DNA from: Pseudovirgaria hyperparasitica
Lineage: Eukaryota
Reading direction: 5' to 3' (one strand)
Assembly (NCBI GenBank): GCA_010093815.1
Contig: ML996583.1
Length of the DNA: 64,000 nucleotides
Below, piece by piece: positions 8,023 through 56,175 of this stretch. Position numbers and translations under genes: made by a program. Each line of letters starts with the position of its first letter. Position 1 is the first letter of the stretch. Under the pieces are notes generated by a model. The model did no database searches, had not been told where the DNA came from, and was given only the letters and a program-made list of their open reading frames with translations.

Positions 8023-9993
8023 ATGCTTGTTTCGCGGCCTCCGGCGTATTTCGGCGGATATATACGGAGCTTACGAAAATACACCAGTTCGCAATGCCTT
8101 GTGTGTGCAGCCGAGCTATACCGGAGCTTCCATACTACGGCGGTTCCTGAGTTCAAGGGAACGTCAAAGCTGGGTTTTACAGTTGAGAAGCTAGATAAGC
8201 GGCGAGATAGTGCGTAAATTGCTATGCTACAACAAGTGTACTTCTTCTCACATCATTTACAGACAGAGAAAGAGTGGTCATTTTGGGATCTGGTGATATA
8301 CAGCGTCTCGTCCAGTGTAAATGCAAACACTGATCAGGTACAGGCTGGGCCGGTTTCAACCTTGCACGCCAACTCGACCCGAAAAAGTTCCAGGCCGTTA
8401 TTGTATCGCCGCGCTCATATTTTGTTTTTACGCCCCTTCTGGCTTCCACATCTGTCGGCACGCTTGAGTTTCGCACTGCTCTAGAGCCGATACGTTCAAA
8501 GAAATCGAAAGCCGTGTTCTTCCAGGGATGGGCGGATGATATTGACCTACAGAACAAGACGCTGACAATCGAGGAGAATGTCGACGACCCTGGTCAATCG
8601 CTCGCCCCGACAGGTGGCCGAGACCATCTGGAAAGTAAAGAGGAACGCGAGATGAAGCGTATGACCAAGCAAAAGAAAGGTAAACTGTTTGATCTCAAGT
8701 TTGACAAGCTTGTCATTGCAGTCGGGTGTTATAGCCAGACCTTTGGCACACCCGGTGTACGAGAGAACGCATTATTCCTGAAAGATGTTGGCGACGCGCG
8801 GAAGATCAGGAATCGTCTCCTCTCATGTACGCTTAACCCACATTCACTCATGGAGTCAAGAAGCATACATTGACCACAGCGCAGGTTTTGAGAGTGCCTC
8901 CCTCCCGACAACCTCATCCGCCATGAAGAAGATTCTCCTGAACTTTGCCGTTGTTGGTGGTGGCCGTACAGCTTCCTTTCTAGCTTCGAACTCCTCAAAC
9001 TAACAACCCTCGCAGCAACCGGGATCGAATTCTCCGCCGAACTGCACGATCTCATATCCGACGACCTCTCCCAGCTCTACCCGGACCTCATGAAATATGT
9101 GCAAATCACAGTCTACGACGTCGCACCACAAGTACTATCCATGTTCGATGCCAATCTTGGCAAATACGCCATGAACGCTTTCAAACGCGAGGGCATCGCC
9201 ATCAAGACGTCGCACCACGTCGAGAACCTCCGGCCCGGCCCGCCGCAGCACGTCAAAGACGCAGGCACCATCCACGACGAGCACACCGTGTATACGCTCC
9301 AGCTGAAGGAGCTCGGCGAAGTCGGCGTCGGCATGGTCGTATGGAGCACCGGACTGATGATGAACCCGTTTGTCGAGCGCGCCATGGGCAAGTCCCAAAC
9401 GCTGCATGTCCCGCACACAAAGTCCGTCGACTACGCCGATGACGGCGCGCCCACGAGCGACTGGGTCGTGCAGAAACACCCAAAGACGGGCGCCATCGTG
9501 ACAAACGACAAGATGCAGGTCCTCCTCTCGGTGCCGCCTGTCACGTCGTCGTCTAGCGATGCCGCAACCGATGCCTCGACCATGACGCTGCAGGACGTCT
9601 TCGCAATCGGCGACTGCGCCACGCAGGCTCACGCATCCTACCCGGCAACAGCGCAGGTCGCGAACCAGGAGGCCATGTGGCTCGCGAAGCGCCTCAACCG
9701 AGACGATCTCGCAACACAGCACTTTACATACAAGGATCTTGGCGTGATGGCGTACATTGGCAACTGGAAGGCGATTGTGCAGACCAAAGGCGGGAATATA
9801 AGTGGGCAGACGGCATGGTTCATCTGGAGGGGCGCATATCTGACCAAGAGCGTGAGCTGGCGGAACAAGATCCTGATCCCGATGTATTGGTATGTCGCGA
9901 ACGTGGTTGGAGCAGCGATCTTGCAACGGTAGTACTGACTTGTCTCCCAGGTTCATCAACTGGGTGTTTGGACGTGATGTATCGCGCTTCTGA
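8023..9993 (+). CDS. Type II (alternative) mitochondrial NADH dehydrogenase, ~6 exons
   Basis: VVILGSGWAGF FAD site, FVFTPLLASTSVGTLEFR, AVVGGGPTGIEFSAEL NAD site, FAIGDCA, PATAQVANQ, C-terminal FINWVFGRDVSRF; Arg-rich presequence-like N-terminus. Confidence 0.93.
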
Positions 9994-10256: not shown

Positions 10257-10456
10257 ATACATACATACATACATACATACATACATACATACATACATAC
10301 ATACATACATACATACATACATACATACATACATACATACATACATACATANNNNNNNNNNACATACATACATACATACATACATACATACATACATACA
10401 TACATACATACATACATACATACATACATACATACATACATACATACATACATACA
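10257..10456. repeat. (TACA)n microsatellite containing a 10-N gap (10352-10361); shorter copy at ~10141-10168
   Basis: Perfect ATAC/TACA repeat either side of the N run; true length unknown. Confidence 0.98.
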
Positions 10457-11134: not shown

Positions 11135-14129
11135 CTATTCTGGTACCACATCCAAGCTATTACCCGTCTGCGTCAGACTCAGGCTCGCACCACGGTCCAA
11201 TTCGGATGCTGCTGCGGTGTTACTCGCAGGGCTTGTGAACCCACTCCCACCTCCGGCTGTCGCTGCAGATGAACCTGCCGGTATCTCCTCCGCAAGCCGC
11301 TCTGCGACATTAGAGTCATACTCGCGCTCCTGCGCGCGCACGGCCTCGGGCGCTACCTTCCTTGCTCCGGCAAGAAAATCAACGTCTCCGTCGTCGTCAT
11401 CATCGTCATCGTCTTCATCATCGTCTTCTTCAGAAGTGTAGTCGTCCTCGTCCGAGGAGTCGTCGCGGTAATTGGATAGAGGTTGACGACTAACGGTTGG
11501 GGGTCGCAGATCGTCTAGCATGTCGACGTCTGAGTCTGCGTCGGAGGCGTCGCTATCATCGGAGAACTCTGCGTCTGGAGAGGAGGAGTCGAGAGGAAGG
11601 AAAGAGGCAGGAGGGAGGGTTGAGACAGGGAGTGTTTCGGTTTTGGTGGAAACAATTTCGTCGGTAAAGGCGATATTAGACCTGCGCGCGTCCGCGACTA
11701 CGGCATCTAGTTTGTGTGGAGGGTGGGAGCCTCGTTTCTTCGAAGCCTCCTCGTCATGCTTAATGTGGCGGGAGACGACGTGGATGGCAAAATGATCTTG
11801 CGGCTGGACACCGCCGAGACCCGAAACTTCGAAGTCGTACGCTTTGAATTGTTTATTTGTGCTTGCGTTATTCTCAAGAGACTTCAGGGAGAAGTGGAAC
11901 TCGGACGATGTTGAGCTAGGTGTGCTGTTGATGTCCTTCATTTCGACGTCGTCCACTACGTTTCGGAAAACTCCGGTAATATCGCGGCGTTCAAAAACAT
12001 CTCTCAAAGGTGATCCGGAATTCAGATCTTCACCGACTGGGCGAGTGGTTACTGGGTCGTAAGACGTGACATTCTTATTCGGAAGACCAGCCGCATTCGC
12101 ATCTCCGCTCAAGTCCGTGCAGAATTTAGCCTTGTTGTAGAAGATAATAGGTCCATCTTCTCGTCGTCGCTTCGAAGACGAAGTCCTCATGCCCGAACTA
12201 GCAAACGCAGATGAGTCGCGGCCGGGCATAGGAGAGGATATCGATGACATTTCCATATTCAAACAATCATCCTCGTCGTCCGACTCGTCCTTGTGATGAA
12301 ATATAGGGGTGTATAACAGCTTGTTATTTTCTTTCTCTTTCTGTAGCCTCGCAAGCTTTTGCGCCTTCTTTCGTGGATCTGAGTTGTCGCTGCTACTGAT
12401 GGTCCTCTTTAACCCTGTCGCACCAGTGCCATCAAGGACGGAGTCGGGCGAGACGCCCTCACGTCTTTCAGATGAGGTGTCGCTGCTGTTCCGAGTAATG
12501 TCTTGACCTCCTTTCCAGCGAATCTTGCGACCATCTTTTGAGAGCTCAAGCTTCGAACTATACTTTTCCACCGCGTGCTTGACAAAGTCGACTGTGACAT
12601 TTATAGTATGCAGTTGTGCCATGTTTATCACTAGGTTCAAGTATAGCCATCCATGGTCATCCTCAGGAGACAGACCTTGGTCTTGCGGCGTGAAACCCAG
12701 GTGGCGGAAGTATTCAATATTATCAGAGGGTACCTGCTCTCGATGAGGGTCTAGGTCGAGTGGTCGTGTTGGTCTCTGGTCCGGTGAGGCTGTGTCAGCA
12801 AAGTCTTGCTGAGCGACAGTGGCGGGTAGACCATGATGCTGAATGGCACCCGTGCTCTCAATCTCATCATCTTGGTCGATGGACGGCATGATCTTGGCAA
12901 TACGATTACCCTCCTTCTGGGATTGTTTCCCCTTAGCCTCGCTCAATTTTCTGTCAGCTATAGCAGCAGAATTGGCTACCTCTTGCTGCTGCATTGGATG
13001 CTGATGCCCACCAACGGCACCTTTGCCGGCAAAGATTTGCTCCAGTCGTCTGACGACAAGCTTTTTCCGACTCTTCTCCGTCATGGCTGTAGTGTTGCCT
13101 CGAGGCATCAGACCGATAGGTATATCATGCAGATACGAATGTATCTCGGAGTTGTTGCGAGTGAAAGCCGGCCTTGACACACTCTTGGAATGAGCACTAT
13201 CTTGGCCTGACGGGATCGACGAATTTCCTTGTCCAGACGCAGACATGGACGCATATCCAGAATCGGCGACACGAGAAGTGCCAGACGAAGTGGCAGTGTT
13301 CCGCGGCTTGAGCGTGCCCGGAATGTATGTTTGTGAGGCACCTGTACCAATGCCAGTCATAGGAGATTTTGATACTTCTGTTGAAACTGGGTCATCCACA
13401 GATAGAGCAAACTTCCGAAGCGTCTCCTCCAATTCACGTTTCTTCTGAGGGGGCAGCGCGTGGAATCGAACTTCGAACAGGCGATCTCCTTGTAGATGAG
13501 CGTCGTGCATCTTTTCATACCTCTTCAGCCTCTTTTTCAGTTGCTTGTTCTCGATAGTCAAGTCATCTATAACGCTGCGATAGTCGTCAGAGCTACCTTC
13601 GGTTTGTAGATTGCCAAGGCCGGCTCGTTGTACAGCGCTCAGTGTGGGAGGAAATGGGATGGTACCCTCAGGTGGCGTCTCGGAAGACGACGAGTTTCGA
13701 AGGAAGAACGGAGGATCATCTACAGCAATCAGACAAAGATAGCAAGCAGTACAGGTACATATTTGACTTACTATCGGGACTGAAGTCGTTACGCTGGCAC
13801 ACATCATTGTTGGAGGTCTCAAACCATCGGCCGGCATCACTACTCTCGCCAGAGCTGTTCTGCTTCGGCTGTCGTACGGAAGACGGAGAGCTGGAAGGCG
13901 GATTGGCAACGATGCTCTGGGGAGGTTGTTGTGAAGTTACGGACGAGGTCTTGCGGTGCTTGTCGTGTAGACGAGATGGCGACAGCTTGGAGGTGGATGG
14001 AGTGGAGTGCAGCAGCGACACGGACTTGTGGGCTGGTGGACGTCGCGACGCATATGCTGAGGATCGGTGAGGCAGTCTAGAGGCAGTTGTAAGGTTTTGA
14101 GGCTCGGATGGCGGCATAGTTGGAGCCAT
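11135..14129 (-). CDS. frq: Circadian clock protein FREQUENCY, 2 coding exons (14129-13772, 13719-11135), 980 aa
   Basis: SSGESSDAGRWFETSN, DNDPPFF across the splice junction, coiled coil DYRSVIDDLTIENKQLKKRLKRYE, LFEVRFHALPPQKKRELEETLRKFA, KKLVVRRLEQIF, DQRPTRPLDLDP, GWLYLNLVINMAQLH, FCTDLSGD, SGLGGVQPQDHF, acidic tail and SSAATAGGGSG end. Confidence 0.96.
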
Positions 14130-50166: not shown

Positions 50167-50504
50167 ACCACATCCATTCGCAATTGAGCAGGACGGCGGC
50201 CAGCGCGTCGCCTGATCCTCAACGTCTGCGACAATGTCACAAACACGTTTGTATTCATCCGGCGTTCTTCCTTGCCACATTCACCGAGCATAACATGCAT
50301 AGAGTAAGACCGAGAATCAGTGAGAATCCTTTTTATATGCTCCAAATGTACATAAGTAGTTCGAAGTTCGCAATTCGGTGCACAACCTCTTCATGAGGTA
50401 GTGTATAGCACCATAGAGCAGGGTTGTCCGAACTATCCGCGTTAAATGCGTGCTACGCCGTTCCGTGCGTTGGTAATTTGCATCAATAGTCAGGATTCCA
50501 CAGT

Positions 50505-51424
50505 TCAAGCCTTCTTCTCCTCTTCTTCCTCCTCGTCGTATTGCAGCCTCTTGGCATTCGCACGCTCCAACTTCCTCTCGCGGGCAGCCTTGTTCTTTGC
50601 ACGCTTGGCGTCCATCTCGTCGGCGAGTTGGCGCTCACGAAGCTTCTCGGCCTTGGCCTTGTGGATCTGGCGGCTGAATTAGCATCTTGCAAGGGCGGCC
50701 GGAGTCATGATGCCATGAATGTCATGGGGGAACGTACGTGTTCTACAAGGGCACGCTTGTGCTTGAAAGTGTTACCCTTAGCGAGCTGGTACAGCTCGTG
50801 GTAGAGGTGCTTGTCGATCTTGCCGGCTGCACGGTACTTGACCAGCAGGCGGCGGAGTACGCGCTGACGGCGCATCCATAAGATCTCGCTGTGAAACAGC
50901 GTTAGCCATATAACCCTCTAGGCTCTTCAACCATCGACTCTACCGCAAGGCGGTCTCGGAGTGATTGATGGGACAACCGAGGGATATATCCTACCTAGGC
51001 ATTCTAGCCTCTTGTGTTCCCTTCCTCTTACCGAAGCCACGGTGTCTACCGATTCTTCGTGCAGCGGTCAACTCACGGGCGCGGGTGCGCGAGTGCATCG
51101 TGACGGGCTTGCGGATGATGAGGCCATCGGAGACCAACTTGCGGATCGTCTGGCGGGAGTTGGCGTTCGAGATTTCGTTGACCTCGTTAGGGTCAAGCCA
51201 AATCTTGCGCTTGCCGCATCCGACGACAGACGCTGCGAGGCGCTTCTGGGTGCGAAGGTTGACCCTGAGGAAAGAAGAACATGTTAGTTGGTTTCTGAAG
51301 TGGTGGCGGAGTTGGGTGAGGGGAACATGAGAATGGCAGTGATAGCGATTAGAACGGTGGATTGACGATGATAGATAGTTTTCTCAAATCCTCAATCGAC
51401 CGTATAGAGAGGGACAACATACAT
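50505..51424 (-). CDS. RPL19: 60S ribosomal protein L19 (eL19), 4 exons; start codon split AT|G by intron 1
   Basis: [59 protein letters not shown]; exons 51424-51423, 51264-50995, 50888-50738, 50666-50505. Confidence 0.97.
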
Positions 51425-52017
51425 TGTCGATGAATGGTTGGTCGCTGTCGGGTTAGTTGATGAGCAATGTCGTGGATGAGGTTGCAAGTATTTTCGCAAG
51501 CGAACGGTGGAGATGTGGGCGCCAAGAGTCACGTGTAGCGAGTGGCCTTCCATCACCCACATCTATTTAAACGAACCTTGACAACAAGATCATTACGGAA
51601 CGTTGCTCATTATGATTCAGATTGACTGACTGACTGTCTATCCTAAAATTGTATAAGTATGACACCTCAAGACTTTGCCCACCCCTACAGCAGTCGGGTC
51701 CGAATCAATGCAGACCGTGGACGATATCTCGGTGACTCGATGAACCATTTTGGCGCTCAATAGCGTGCTTGTACTGTAGTACTATCTGTTCGCCCTCGCT
51801 GTCGTCAATAATCTCTGACCAACATAGCCGCTCTACATGGAGCTCTAGGGGTATATCTGGGCATAGCGGCCCTTGAATCCGAGTAATGTAGTGTCTTGGC
51901 CGTTACGAGCCTAAACGTGCTGAGTACGCCAATTTTCAGCCTCCACTCATCTGAGTTACAGCCGTGTTGGTCGACATCGTCCATCCATACATCCCAAACG
52001 GCGCAGCCAGCTGCACC

Positions 52018-53264
52018 ATGGCGGTCATTCGTCTTGACGTCTTTGTTATTGCGCCGGCCCTTTTACTAACCACACTGTTCACGGTATCTGTGGTTCAGTT
52101 AGCCCTGATTGCACACGTCGTAGGCTGGACGAACAGCGAAAGTACATTTCTCGATACCCCAGACGTAGACCAAACAGCAAGAACTGGAAAAGTTCCTTTG
52201 CCGCCCAACTTGAACTATGAGAGTTCAGCCTGCTTGCTTGCATGCAGCGCCTGTAGTATTTTGGCCTCAGGATTATTGGGTGCCTTAATATATACCACCG
52301 AGAGAGGCCTCAAATTGGAACTGAATTTCGGCAAGCCTACTGTATGTATAATAAACCTGAAGGTATGTCTCTGCGTACTGAATCTTGTGGACAGGCCCAT
52401 TCTGCCGCTGTTAGGAAAAGGCTACATGAGTCATCCGTGATGTTCAGCTTGTCTGGAGTCCTGGTTGTTCTGACAACTGGTGTACTAATCTTCTGTTTTA
52501 TTGATCCAGGCAGATCACATAGTCCTTCAATCTCATACAATCCCTCATCCAACACGGTCACGAACTACGACCAATATCAAACCCTGGAAACTTGGACATG
52601 TGTTCTTTCAGTCAAGGCAAGCTCACTCAACATATTGCGCCAACAATGCCGCCAGGCACGTGCTGCACGGTTCTTACTTATTCCCAACATTGCTGTGACT
52701 GCATTGCTGGCATGTTGTCTGGCCTGGCGTCAGCGTGTTTTCAACCTTCATCAGGACGACGTTCCTGATAAGGTTGAGATAGATGCATTGGAGAAGCGAA
52801 CAGGCTTTGTAACGCGCCCGTCGGAGCAGACAATCGTGGAATTAGATACCGGCTCAGCCAAAGAAGTCGCCGGTGGCCAAATTACTGAATTACCACAGGC
52901 GGCGGCGGAGCTCCCTGGTCCAAAAATGACATATAATGGCGCCGAATACTTCGCTGGCACAGCAATCCCATCGGCGACAGTGCATTCGGGATGGCCGCTA
53001 GACCGAGTCATACTGTGGCTCTCAGTAAACAACTTCTCGATTGAGTGGCAAGAGCTATTCCGGTACTTAAACCTCGACGAAGGTCTGTTTCTAGACCTCG
53101 GACGTGACGATGCCAACAAGAAAGATGCCAATGCCATGTATCACAAGATCCTTCCTCAACTGGCCCAACAGTATAGAAAGAGTGGCGTGCGGTGGGACAG
53201 ACAGAAAGCAAGAGATGAGAGTAGAAGATTGCAAAGGTTGATACGGAGTATCCTCGAAGACTGA
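52018..53264 (+). CDS. Predicted four-TM (MARVEL-like topology) membrane protein with a C-terminal Bck1-type SAM-like domain, 2 exons (intron 52342-52394)
   Basis: Four hydrophobic helices, loop TLETWTC...CRQARAARFLLIP, EL[PD]-repeat linker, then WPLDRVILWL..NNFS.EWQE.F... Confidence 0.75.
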
Positions 53265-53848
53265 AGCCTATATTTTGCAACACGATCTTTTACCACCTGG
53301 ATGTCGTCTCGATGGTTTGCTGAGGAGTTACATTCTTGGTGAATACTAATGATGCCTTCGCTACGCAGCGGGTGTGCACATAACGATGAACACCTGGCTT
53401 TGCGAGCACATTGGGCATGCTCAACTCCATTACGTGAACTTTTCGCGCGGAGACTTCACCATACTTGAGCTTCGCACACAAAGGCCTCTATGTTACGGAC
53501 ATCGTTAGCAACGCAGCTGTAATACACAATGCGATGTTTAACGTTTTCGAGGCTATGCCACTTCGCATCACGCATCACACATTCGAGACGACGCGAATAC
53601 AAGACAACACCCTATATGCATCACTTGAGCTAGGCTACGAGATGCATATAAACTCCCCTGCCATCTCTCCCAGCTCCTCACCAACTTCCTAAGTTCTCAC
53701 ACCACATTTTCAAGCCCAGGTCCATCAACCTATCATCTTCGGACTACCACAATCACTTACACACGAAGCTATTACCCACCAACTACCACAAGCCTAACGG
53801 GCGCTCTAAGGACCGCCACAATCAACCGTAACCCCGTACACCATCAAG

Positions 53849-54622
53849 ATGGCCAACTGCAATCACCGTGTCATGAACCCGACCGACTCGAGACAACGCG
53901 AGATCATGCGCGCCTGGCTCCGCGCCGGCAATCGCATGCGCGACGGCGTGCACAACCCGGACCCCAACGACGAGCGGTACAAGTTCGGCCACAACAGCAC
54001 CGGGAACCGCTATGAAGACCCTACGTGGCGCCGCATCGTCTCCGGGCAGCCATCACACGGACATAGGCGTTTTCACCAGCGTGCCATTACGGATGGACGC
54101 GAAAGTGCTACGTATGGAGGCTTGCATGATGCGTCTTTCGCAACCAGTGGGGGTCATGGCAGCGATGGATTAGTGACCAGGTTGCAGGCGCTTACAATAG
54201 GCACGGGTACCATGGATGGCCAGTCATCGATGATGAGGAGTTCGCGCCAAGGTCCGAGTTTGGGCGGAGTGCAATCGGGACGATCGTTCGCAGCGATCAC
54301 TGCTCCAGGCGGAGCGAGCATGAGGGCAGACATCGGTGGCAACATGGGCAGCTACAATGCTGGCGGGACCGCGAACTTCCAGCAGCCCTCGAGAAAGTCG
54401 CACAAAGACTCGATGATGGCATCGTCCCGCCAGGGACCTAGTTTAGGCAATGTGGCAGCTGGAACCATGACGATGGCGTCGGATGGGTCAATGATGCGGT
54501 CGAGTCGTCAGGGACCGAGTGTAGGTATTGGGGATTCATTCAGAGGGTTGAGTCAGCGCGGATCTGGACTCGGAAACATGAGCACGGGTTCTACTATGCC
54601 GGGACGCCGCCGACGATTCTAG
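53849..54622 (+). CDS. Hypothetical intronless Gly/Ser-rich protein with SMMxSSRQGPS repeats
   Basis: 257-aa ORF, CAAGATGG start context, C/A-rich leader, TATAAA near 53647; protein-level repeats use different synonymous codons. Confidence 0.7.
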   Translation: MANCNHRVMNPTDSRQREIMRAWLRAGNRMRDGVHNPDPNDERYKFGHNSTGNRYEDPTWRRIVSGQPSHGHRRFHQRAITDGRESATYGGLHDASFATSGGHGSDGLVTRLQALTIGTGTMDGQSSMMRSSRQGPSLGGVQSGRSFAAITAPGGASMRADIGGNMGSYNAGGTANFQQPSRKSHKDSMMASSRQGPSLGNVAAGTMTMASDGSMMRSSRQGPSVGIGDSFRGLSQRGSGLGNMSTGSTMPGRRRRF

Positions 54623-54800
54623 CAATTAGAGATACACCGGAACCGGGAGGAATTATCTCTAATCTGAAGGGAAGAGAGTCTAAGCGGTGGGAAAATTTGT
54701 TGATTGGGACTTTATAGATTGAATGCCGGTAGTAGCTGAGCAAGCCCATATGAACCTTGTCTAAGGATATAATGTGTACAGATACATCGTTACGTTGAGA

Positions 54801-56175
54801 TCAATGCTTGATAGGGAATTGATCTCGGATCTGCCATAACCTGAACATCATTATGCTTGCCACTAGGTACGCAAGCCCTGCGTAGATCTGCGGATAAAGA
54901 TACTCGCGATCGCTGTCTGGTCTTCTAATTTTCAAGGCTATGACTTCGGAGAAAGTAGTCGGCAGCGTGATGATGGCCCAACACAGCGATAAAAGTGACG
55001 GAAGGTGTTTCAGTCCCACTACTTCGGCACATAAGGGACTGATAGTCTGAGTAAAGGGTTAGTATCATTATTGGTCGCTGGAAAGGTGGTTAAGCCGACT
55101 CACTCCCCAGAACAATCCAATCGTTGCTCCTGACAAGACAGCAAAGACGAGTAACAGTGGCCAATTCTGTGCTGGGATCCAGAGTGCGAAGACGAATACG
55201 GCATTAGCCGTAGTGATATAACCTGCAACCTTTATCCGGCCATACCTATCACTCATGATCCCAATCAAAGGTCTGCCGATGAGAGTTCCTCCGTTGAGAG
55301 CGGCTGTTGTGGTTGCCGCTTGCGAAGCCGAGAGTCCAATTGAACGCGCAAAGTCCGAGAGCGAATATAAAATGGTAACATAACCAAGCAGGGAAAAGAA
55401 GCCCCATGCTAGGAGGCATATCACACCTTGACTTCTGAATAAACGGAAATCGAAGCCTCGAAGGGATGGTTTAATGGCCTTGTTGCGGCTCCGCAGAAAG
55501 ATGCAAGCAGCTAAGTTACAAGCTCCTGAGACAATACCAGTGATTCGTAAAGCCCATGCAAGAGAGACGTGCTCGATGCTAGCTCGAACAGCAAATGAGA
55601 ATATAACACCGCCTATGCCAGAGCCCGCACTTGTGATGCCGTTAGCCAGGCTCCTTTTCCTGGCAAACCATTGGCTGCTGATAGGATTCGACGGAATCCA
55701 AATGAAGCCGATGCCTAAACCAAATAGGAGACCTTGTGAAAGGTAAAGCTGCCAGATACGTGTCGCGAAGGATGCCGCGACGAAACCAGCAGTCTGGAAT
55801 GCGATGCCTAACAGCATGGGTGGGTGTATTCCCCAAAGGCGGACTGCTATAGTGGCAGGAGTCGAGGACAGCATGGCAGCTCCGAATACGAGGCCGCCAA
55901 TAAAGGCGTAGTCCAAAGCAGTGGCTTCAGGGAAGACATTGTTGGAGAGGTAATAGGCAAGGTAGACTCCATATGACTGGCTCGATTAGAACAATAGCAG
56001 GACTCTTGAGAACACTCACGGCTGCAACCCCCCATGTAAACGAGTTCACTGTAGCTACGCAAGCTACGCAGACCCATCCGTAACCGCCATCGGGGATATG
56101 AATGTCTTCAACAGCCTCTGTGGTAGCAGTCCTCGAACGTTCAACGTCACCAATGGGTTCTGCTTTTGGATTCAT
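54801..56175 (-). CDS. MFS monocarboxylate-porter family transporter (second in window), 3 exons
   Basis: PDGGYGWVCV..NSFTWG, IWQLYLSQGLLFGLG, WFARKRSLANGITSAGSGIGG, IGRPLIGIMSDRYGR. Confidence 0.92.

Follow-up and report, generated by a model that had tools for sequence, protein, structure and literature searches.

A transcribed gene of Pseudovirgaria hyperparasitica that joins four hydrophobic helices to a predicted SAM-type domain of the Bck1/Mkh1 N-terminal family

The window analysed here is a stretch of 64,000 nt of Pseudovirgaria hyperparasitica (GCA_010093815.1, contig ML996583.1). It holds a two-exon gene whose spliced product of 397 aa carries four hydrophobic helices, an acidic linker and a C-terminal domain related to the N-terminal region of the MAPKKKs of the Bck1 class. 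The gene is transcribed and spliced as predicted. In our view this is a real, expressed tetraspan gene with a SAM-type tail, and we tentatively favour the reading that it encodes a functional docking module, tethered to a membrane, which would act by homotypic contacts. That Bck1 itself is one of the partners is possible but doubtful, judging from the sequence.

Gene model, transcripts and membrane half

The features of the gene, in positions of the window and with the basis of each, are the following.

52018..52341, + strand: exon 1 (coding), aa 1-108; ORF/splice prediction, RNA-like contigs cover from 51627
52039-52095, + strand: hydrophobic helix 1, aa 8-26; Kyte-Doolittle
52234-52290, + strand: hydrophobic helix 2, aa 73-91; Kyte-Doolittle
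52342..52394, + strand: intron of 53 nt, GTATGT..TACTGAA..ACAG; predicted, and spliced out as GT..AG by one contig of X1 and one of X2
52395..53264, + strand: exon 2 (coding), aa 109-397, stop TGA 53262-53264; ORF and contigs
52446..52502, + strand: hydrophobic helix 3, aa 126-144; Kyte-Doolittle, inside a helix of the AF2 exon-2 model
52671..52727, + strand: hydrophobic helix 4, aa 201-219; Kyte-Doolittle, inside a helix of the AF2 exon-2 model
52728..52979, + strand: acidic linker, aa 220-303, predicted disordered; sequence and AF2 pLDDT
52980..53261, + strand: C-terminal predicted SAM-fold domain, aa 304-397, Bck1/Mkh1 N-terminal family; phmmer, alignment, AF2 and VIA-align

Downstream of an in-frame stop at 51952-51954, translation would start at the first ATG of the frame, at 52018. 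Numerous GT..AG pairs are compatible with an open frame, but the sole canonical one that joins both frames is 52342-52394, which has a fungal donor, a branch-like sequence and an acceptor of canonical type. The gene call present in the database (P0004, 274 aa) takes an internal Met of exon 2 as its start and misses helices 1 and 2. A preliminary description of this DNA, made from its letters, had proposed one spliced ORF encoding four hydrophobic helices, a linker with EL[PD] repeats and a C-terminal segment at 52992-53261; all of this was found again as it had been written.

Transcript data were available as contigs of two runs, X1 and X2, which belong to one sample of one study and whose library kind is unrecorded; they were compared with the window over 50500-55000. 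We observed that the contigs of X1/X2 drop exactly the 53 nt of 52342-52394 (GT..AG), with a depth of 35/91. The contig aligns to 51627-52341 and 52395-55000 with zero differing letters and no further joint, and therefore no splice removes the domain or the stop codon. Three CT..AC introns (GT..AG on the minus strand) of the adjacent ribosomal protein L19 gene are also removed, at a depth of 1625/2728. Since the L19 introns, which the window keeps, are spliced out and the depth is uneven (1625 versus 35), X1 and X2 behave as RNA, and we infer that both are RNA-like runs. The contigs come without strand, transcript ends or expression level, and as they extend into the next gene they do not delimit a single transcript. 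Over 52395-55000 they are unbroken and run through the domain and the stop, in agreement with the continuous transcript that the preliminary description had named as a check.

Hydrophobicity was evaluated on the spliced protein by the Kyte-Doolittle scale in 19-residue windows, and the four hydrophobic segments score 2.1-2.4. Four transmembrane helices is also the number that characterises tetraspan families (MARVEL, SUR7/claudin-like, Sho1-type). When the two exon products were each scanned alone, no Pfam family was found in either, the best being PRD1_P5_C at E 0.12. In the ESM Atlas, exon 1 pointed to an unnamed Ascomycota cluster (0.92), to MARVEL (0.84) and then to AWPM-19 and claudin-like proteins, with a recognition value below the tool's bar; the exon-2 product gave no usable feature match and a structural TM of at most 0.32.

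The linker that follows helix 4 is about 80 aa long and contains three EL[PD] tripeptides (ELD 257-259, ELP 273-275 and ELP 280-282). In the AF2 model, its mean pLDDT is 43-59 per 10-residue block and mostly below 50 (exon-2 residues 121-200). A resemblance of the linker to the SATYIP..FGPGVGIP motif of Bck1 was considered and rejected: the exon-2 product has no match to an HMM of the motif, and 426 of 2000 shuffles reach the alignment score. Helices 2 and 3 are joined by a basic loop, which, together with a WRQR past helix 4, suggests that the tail may be cytosolic. Nevertheless, helix 4 is flanked by arginines on both sides, four immediately in front of it and two behind it. This is a misfit with a simple positive-inside reading, so that the predicted topology is tentative.

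The C-terminal domain: relatives, carriers and predicted fold

The 94-aa domain was compared by phmmer with 1.84 billion representative proteins. This search gave 196 matches at E <= 1e-3, 129 of which reach E <= 1e-10; the best 150 of the 196, the window protein included, were listed, and the best non-self match has an E-value of 3e-24. Proteins of 1200-1940 aa with a C-terminal kinase make up at least 53 of the 149 listed relatives: the HRDxKxxN kinase motif is present in 51 of the 149 and a Pkinase match in two more. Kinase-bearing proteins were matched with E-values of 1e-17 to 1e-19. For the architectures, a Pfam scan covered the best 36 non-self matches and 76 further non-kinase matches; among the 36, 17 are proteins of 1568-1938 aa in which a C-terminal Pkinase is the only Pfam family and in which the segment that corresponds to the window domain lies at residues about 80-490.

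We also used the domain region of P0009, the closest kinase-bearing match, as a query and obtained 164 proteins at E <= 1e-10. Some of these bear the source names 'STE STE11 BCK1 kinase', 'MAP kinase kinase kinase mkh1' or 'mitogen-activated protein kinase kinase kinase', all from Pezizomycotina. Many of the short matches resemble N-terminal fragments of Bck1-class kinases, with the SATYIP..FGPGVGIP motif upstream. The conserved core of the family can be written W..V..WL...FS..W...F, FL.LG, P.L and E..R, and begins at W 52992 in the window copy. Of all carriers of the family, the best conserved is Bck1/Mkh1, the cell-wall-integrity MAPKKK of filamentous ascomycetes. Phmmer and the source names agree on the kinship of the last ~90 aa with the N-termini of Bck1-type MAPKKKs that had been proposed at the outset, and the residue pattern then given for the Bck1/Mck1/MIK-1 class agrees with the family consensus. 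The description of this copy as kinase-free stands as well: the exon products have no Pfam match, the frame ends at the TGA, and no joint in the contig removes this stop. The window copy of the domain matches no Pfam family at E <= 10, and the domain family is uncatalogued as such in Pfam.

At least 20 non-kinase proteins carry the domain, of which 18 are among the 149 listed relatives, in the following settings.

HeLo and GIT_SHD, with or without RA: P0075, P0082, P0088, P0104, P0143
RA alone: P0123
NACHT_N/NACHT: P0099
TPR: P0055, P0105
ankyrin repeats: P0072, P0115, P0149
two tandem copies of the domain, ankyrin and RING: P0005
Zn-cluster or C2H2: P0081, P0087, P0052, P0137
beside a topoisomerase fragment: P0018
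PF17111: P0154, P0155 (from a profile search of 64-588-aa proteins)

Fused gene models may account for some of these settings. Bck1 is not the exclusive carrier of the domain, which it shares with HeLo/RA, NACHT, TPR, ankyrin and zinc-finger proteins.

An AF2 model of the domain, built with 36 sequences, has a mean pLDDT of 83 and five helices, and in the AF2 model of the exon-2 product the domain reaches a pLDDT of 92-97. In VIA-align, which is independent of Foldseek, the matches have Z from 7.8 to 4.7, thus below 8, the range where the tool warns of common arrangements, and an rmsd of 2.2-3.8 A over 58-75 aligned residues. They include the Hyphen/Aveugle SAM (Z 7.8), the SARM1 SAM (7.3 and 7.1) and the Scm SAM (7.2), and a SAM domain is named in the title of 16 of the 25 top rows. 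Polymer-forming SAMs are among these neighbours (SARM1, Scm, Shank3, DGK-delta). The rows that belong to MAPK pathways are a ZAK entry (Z 6.3), whose aligned part we take to be the SAM domain of ZAK, the Ste50 SAM (4.9) and the ASK3 SAM (4.7).

Foldseek found nothing in the PDB at E <= 1e-3, and its weak rows were mostly SAM domains. Pfam SAM_3 is matched weakly by 16 of the 36 relatives (best E 7.8e-4), and the family profile retrieved two entries from the PDB sequences, liprin-beta (E 0.26) and ETV6 (E 0.61), each at the N-terminal W..V..WL motif of the SAM. When the single domain was compared with the PDB by sequence, the sole match was a ryanodine-receptor chimera (E 0.38), which we took as due to chance. 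The matches to SAM domains are consistent with one another and cover the full domain, so that a SAM-type five-helix fold appears to be the best reading of the models. Together, the AF2 bundle of five helices and the VIA-align matches, all of Z below 8, give moderate support to the SAM-like nature that the preliminary description had assigned to this domain. In the passages of the literature that we retrieved, which concern Ste50/Ste11 or other proteins, no description of a SAM-like domain in Bck1-class kinases was found.

Conservation, origin and distribution of the gene

The window copy is 34-47% identical to the 53 kinase-borne copies (median 0.40), and these copies have a median identity of 0.51 among themselves. 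The positions at which it agrees with them are unevenly spread. It keeps 16 of the 18 columns that are at least 90% conserved among the 53 kinase-borne copies and 22 of the 29 that are at least 80% conserved; of the columns conserved below 60%, it keeps 10 of 39. In alignment A1, the window copy keeps all five invariant and all nine nearly invariant columns (5/5 and 9/9). An intact frame, with identities concentrated in constrained columns at such a divergence, speaks against neutral decay. This argues, on the sequence, that the fold of the window domain is maintained, though it is no substitute for dN/dS.

What is maintained could nevertheless be a domain that merely clusters the membrane protein with itself. 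SAM domains commonly self-associate, and a shared domain would then reflect common ancestry and not a shared partner, with no link to Bck1 or to cell-wall integrity. The polymer-forming SAMs among the structural neighbours are in keeping with this explanation, and so are the many unrelated architectures that carry the domain, which suit a generic oligomerisation module; moreover, at an identity of at most 47% to the kinase-borne copies, the interface residues may differ. The conserved positions that the window copy retains are, however, those conserved in Bck1 (16/18), and we regard pure self-clustering as rather unlikely.

Concerning the origin of the gene, a maximum-likelihood tree of 151 copies of the domain is poorly resolved, with 85 of its 148 inner branches drawn open. 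The window copy has a branch of 0.7, compared with a median of 0.25, lies in no starred clade and is weakly sister to P0063 (SH-aLRT 89). P0063 was examined as an orthologue and set aside, as it has only the domain in common with the window protein. It had been suggested that the gene was formed by capture of the domain from Bck1. The tree does not support this suggestion, as it gives no resolution around the window copy, and the domain also occurs in the non-kinase proteins listed above; capture from Bck1 is a possible origin as far as the sequences go. The architecture had also been presented as undescribed. Indeed, the four-helix form was seen in none of the 149 listed relatives, but P0115 has one transmembrane helix before the domain, and hence membrane anchoring of the domain is not unique to the window protein.

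We looked for orthologues in several ways. A word-based homologue search with the exon-2 product returned only itself among 1455 candidates, with a tool that misses known relatives of 45-50% identity and whose negative result therefore carries little weight for distant orthologues. A search with profile A2 among proteins of 64-588 aa, by the same tool that misses the 45-50% relatives, gave 5 proteins among 7999 candidates, in none of which the membrane part was present. A metagenome scan gave 86 pattern matches, of which 0 were confirmed, and tblastn within the window detected neither exon, nor the domain, a second time. As far as can be seen in the word-based, profile and metagenome searches, the gene is lineage-restricted. 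Its neighbourhood is of housekeeping type, with a FEN1-like nuclease, FRQ, a Dim1-like methylase, a TAF13-like protein, a diphthine-synthase-like protein and L19, and also an MFS protein and an aquaporin; the locus lies outside repeat-rich DNA.

One may then ask if this is a chimeric gene of recent origin that has hardly any function or none, in which a duplicated piece of the domain came to stand behind a tetraspan-like frame and which is transcribed and spliced but not selected as a whole. The missing orthologue in the word-based, profile and metagenome searches would fit, as would the long branch of the window domain, a linker predicted to be disordered and a membrane half that has no Pfam family and only weak language-model leads. 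On the other hand, the domain has acquired no stop or frameshift at about 40-47% identity to its relatives and keeps its conserved columns (16/18) far better than the variable ones (10/39), its fold is predicted at high confidence, an exactly spliced intron links both frames, and the neighbours are housekeeping genes. We consider such a chimera unlikely.

Possible function and comparison with known systems

In the favoured reading of the gene as encoding a membrane-tethered docking module, the tetraspan part would anchor the protein in the membrane, and the long flexible linker would tether the terminal SAM-type domain on the cytosolic side. The domain would then pair with a like domain, as SAM domains usually do, and this pairing would hold at the membrane the protein itself, Bck1 or another carrier of the family. 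By analogy with SAM domains, like-with-like pairing at the membrane seems the most economical mechanism. Since the domain is present in many proteins other than Bck1, this kinase would be only one of several candidate partners. Its effect on Bck1 could be recruitment (activation) or titration (decoy), between which the sequence cannot tell; an adaptor or a decoy that contacts Bck1 SAM to SAM had been suggested in the preliminary description.

A broader proposal is that the N-terminal domain of Bck1 is the hub of an uncatalogued network of homotypic docking in filamentous ascomycetes, to which the window gene would contribute a lineage-specific membrane input of Sho1 type that recruits Bck1 by pairing of like domains, or a brake. 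Kinase-free copies, namely the four-helix protein, P0115 and the HeLo/NACHT/TPR death or surveillance proteins, would in such a network plug into the MAPKKK of the cell-wall-integrity cascade. We hold this proposal to be improbable at present. Still less probable, indeed very improbable, is that the domain is a bait or mimic of Bck1 that reports or intercepts what targets the Bck1 N-terminus, for instance an upstream activator or a foreign effector: it is brought to mind by the NLR-like and HeLo cell-death architectures (P0099, P0075, P0082, P0088, P0104, P0143, P0055, P0105) and the PF17111 proteins that carry the domain, but its basis is entirely domain co-occurrence, some such architectures are possibly fused gene models, and no ligand of the Bck1 domain was found in the literature searched.

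Pkc1 is the known route of Bck1 activation. For filamentous fungi, the literature searched says little on what Bck1 does with its long non-kinase part. According to the models, this part would contain a folded module of SAM type, of which a membrane protein and NLR-like proteins have free copies. This gives a testable handle on the localisation, scaffolding or monitoring of the cell-wall-integrity cascade. The architecture is new and the kind of module is known; as the gene was seen in one lineage only, its direct importance is modest unless binding to Bck1 holds.

The docking-module reading can be set against known systems. With the Bck1/Mkh1 MAPKKKs, the window protein has in common the ~90-aa domain family and its conserved core. 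In these kinases of 1200-1940 aa the domain is 150-500 aa from the N-terminus, whereas in the window protein it is C-terminal, behind four helices, and both the C-terminal STE11-class kinase domain and the long Bck1 regions are absent. With SAM domains, the model of the window domain shares a five-helix bundle of ~70 core residues, and it would differ from them in that helices 3 and 4 are separated by a longer loop and the last helix is long.

Among the relatives, the closest in layout is P0115 (851 aa), in which a membrane helix is N-terminal to a kinase-free copy of the domain, as in the window protein. P0115 has one helix instead of four, its ankyrin repeats follow the domain, and no similarity between the two was seen outside the domain.

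The C-terminal SH3 of Sho1 binds and recruits the MAPKK Pbs2. The passages available from PMC4411306 describe Sho1 as an osmosensor with four transmembrane helices, which has a protein-binding domain in the cytoplasm and serves as scaffold of the HOG MAPK module. The likeness to Sho1 is one of overall design only, that is, four helices, a linker and a small C-terminal docking domain. The docking domain would be of SAM type and not an SH3, the loops are longer in the window protein, and its link to a MAPK cascade is inferred.

The other system is the Opy2-Ste50-Ste11 chain, where a SAM-SAM contact brings the MAPKKK Ste11 to the membrane. Ste50-Ste11 pairing through SAM domains, with Opy2 as the membrane anchor, is described in the passages available from PMC6589780 and PMC6347418. 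The Ste50-like order, domain and then RA, is present in the relatives P0123, P0082, P0088 and P0104, and RA precedes the domain in P0143. In the window protein no RA match was found, and the protein ends 3 residues past the last helix of the domain. Finally, anchor and SAM are separate in Opy2 and Ste50, whereas the window protein would carry both on one polypeptide and its partner, by analogy, would more likely be Bck1 than Ste11.

Gene call and neighbouring genes

At the locus of the four-helix protein, the public gene call (P0004, 274 aa) begins at a methionine within exon 2 (52395-53264) and consequently leaves out the first exon together with two of the four helices that cross the membrane. 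Other features of the window include the following.

8334-9929, Pyr_redox_2/NDH2-like gene
10352-10361, scaffold gap of 10 N, just downstream of the Pyr_redox_2/NDH2-like gene
11138-13936, minus strand, full-length gene of the clock protein frequency (FRQ; Pfam FRQ, E 2e-132)
50544-51453, minus strand, gene of ribosomal protein L19e, interrupted by three introns (50667-50737, 50889-50994 and 51264-51421)
53810-54619, plus strand, open frame of 270 aa without Pfam family

All three introns of the L19e gene were absent from the RNA-like contigs, whose depth is very high at this gene. We also observed that the 270-aa frame, in which the unit S-M-M-R/A-S-S-R-Q-G-P-S-L/V-G is repeated three times, is spanned without any joint by an RNA-like contig that also covers the gene of the four-helix protein.

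Tandem and membrane-anchored relatives of the domain

The best non-self match to the window domain was P0005, a protein of 2375 aa that contains the Bck1-type SAM-like domain twice in tandem (1925-2012 and 2065-2156), the two copies lying between ankyrin repeats and a RING finger. Matches to bromodomain, C2 and Sec3-PH precede this part of the protein, and the gene model of P0005 may be a fusion. P0115 (851 aa) is, among the 149 listed relatives, the best non-self matches of the phmmer search, the only membrane-anchored carrier of the domain besides the window protein; it has a single clear membrane-spanning helix at about aa 31-56, followed by the domain (136-221) and then by ankyrin repeats.

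The domain in NLR-like, HeLo and RA proteins

According to predicted gene models, the domain is also carried by NLR-like proteins (NACHT_N/NACHT, TPR) and by proteins with the PF17111 N-terminal domain (P0099, P0055, P0105, P0154 and P0155). Further relatives outside the window are P0123, a short protein with the domain followed by RA, and five proteins in which HeLo and Spa2-homology (GIT_SHD) domains stand before it and RA, where present, behind it (P0075, P0082, P0088, P0104 and P0143); in P0143, RA precedes the SAM-like domain. Except in P0143, the order of the domain and RA resembles the SAM-RA order of Ste50, placed in the HeLo proteins behind a HeLo cell-death domain.
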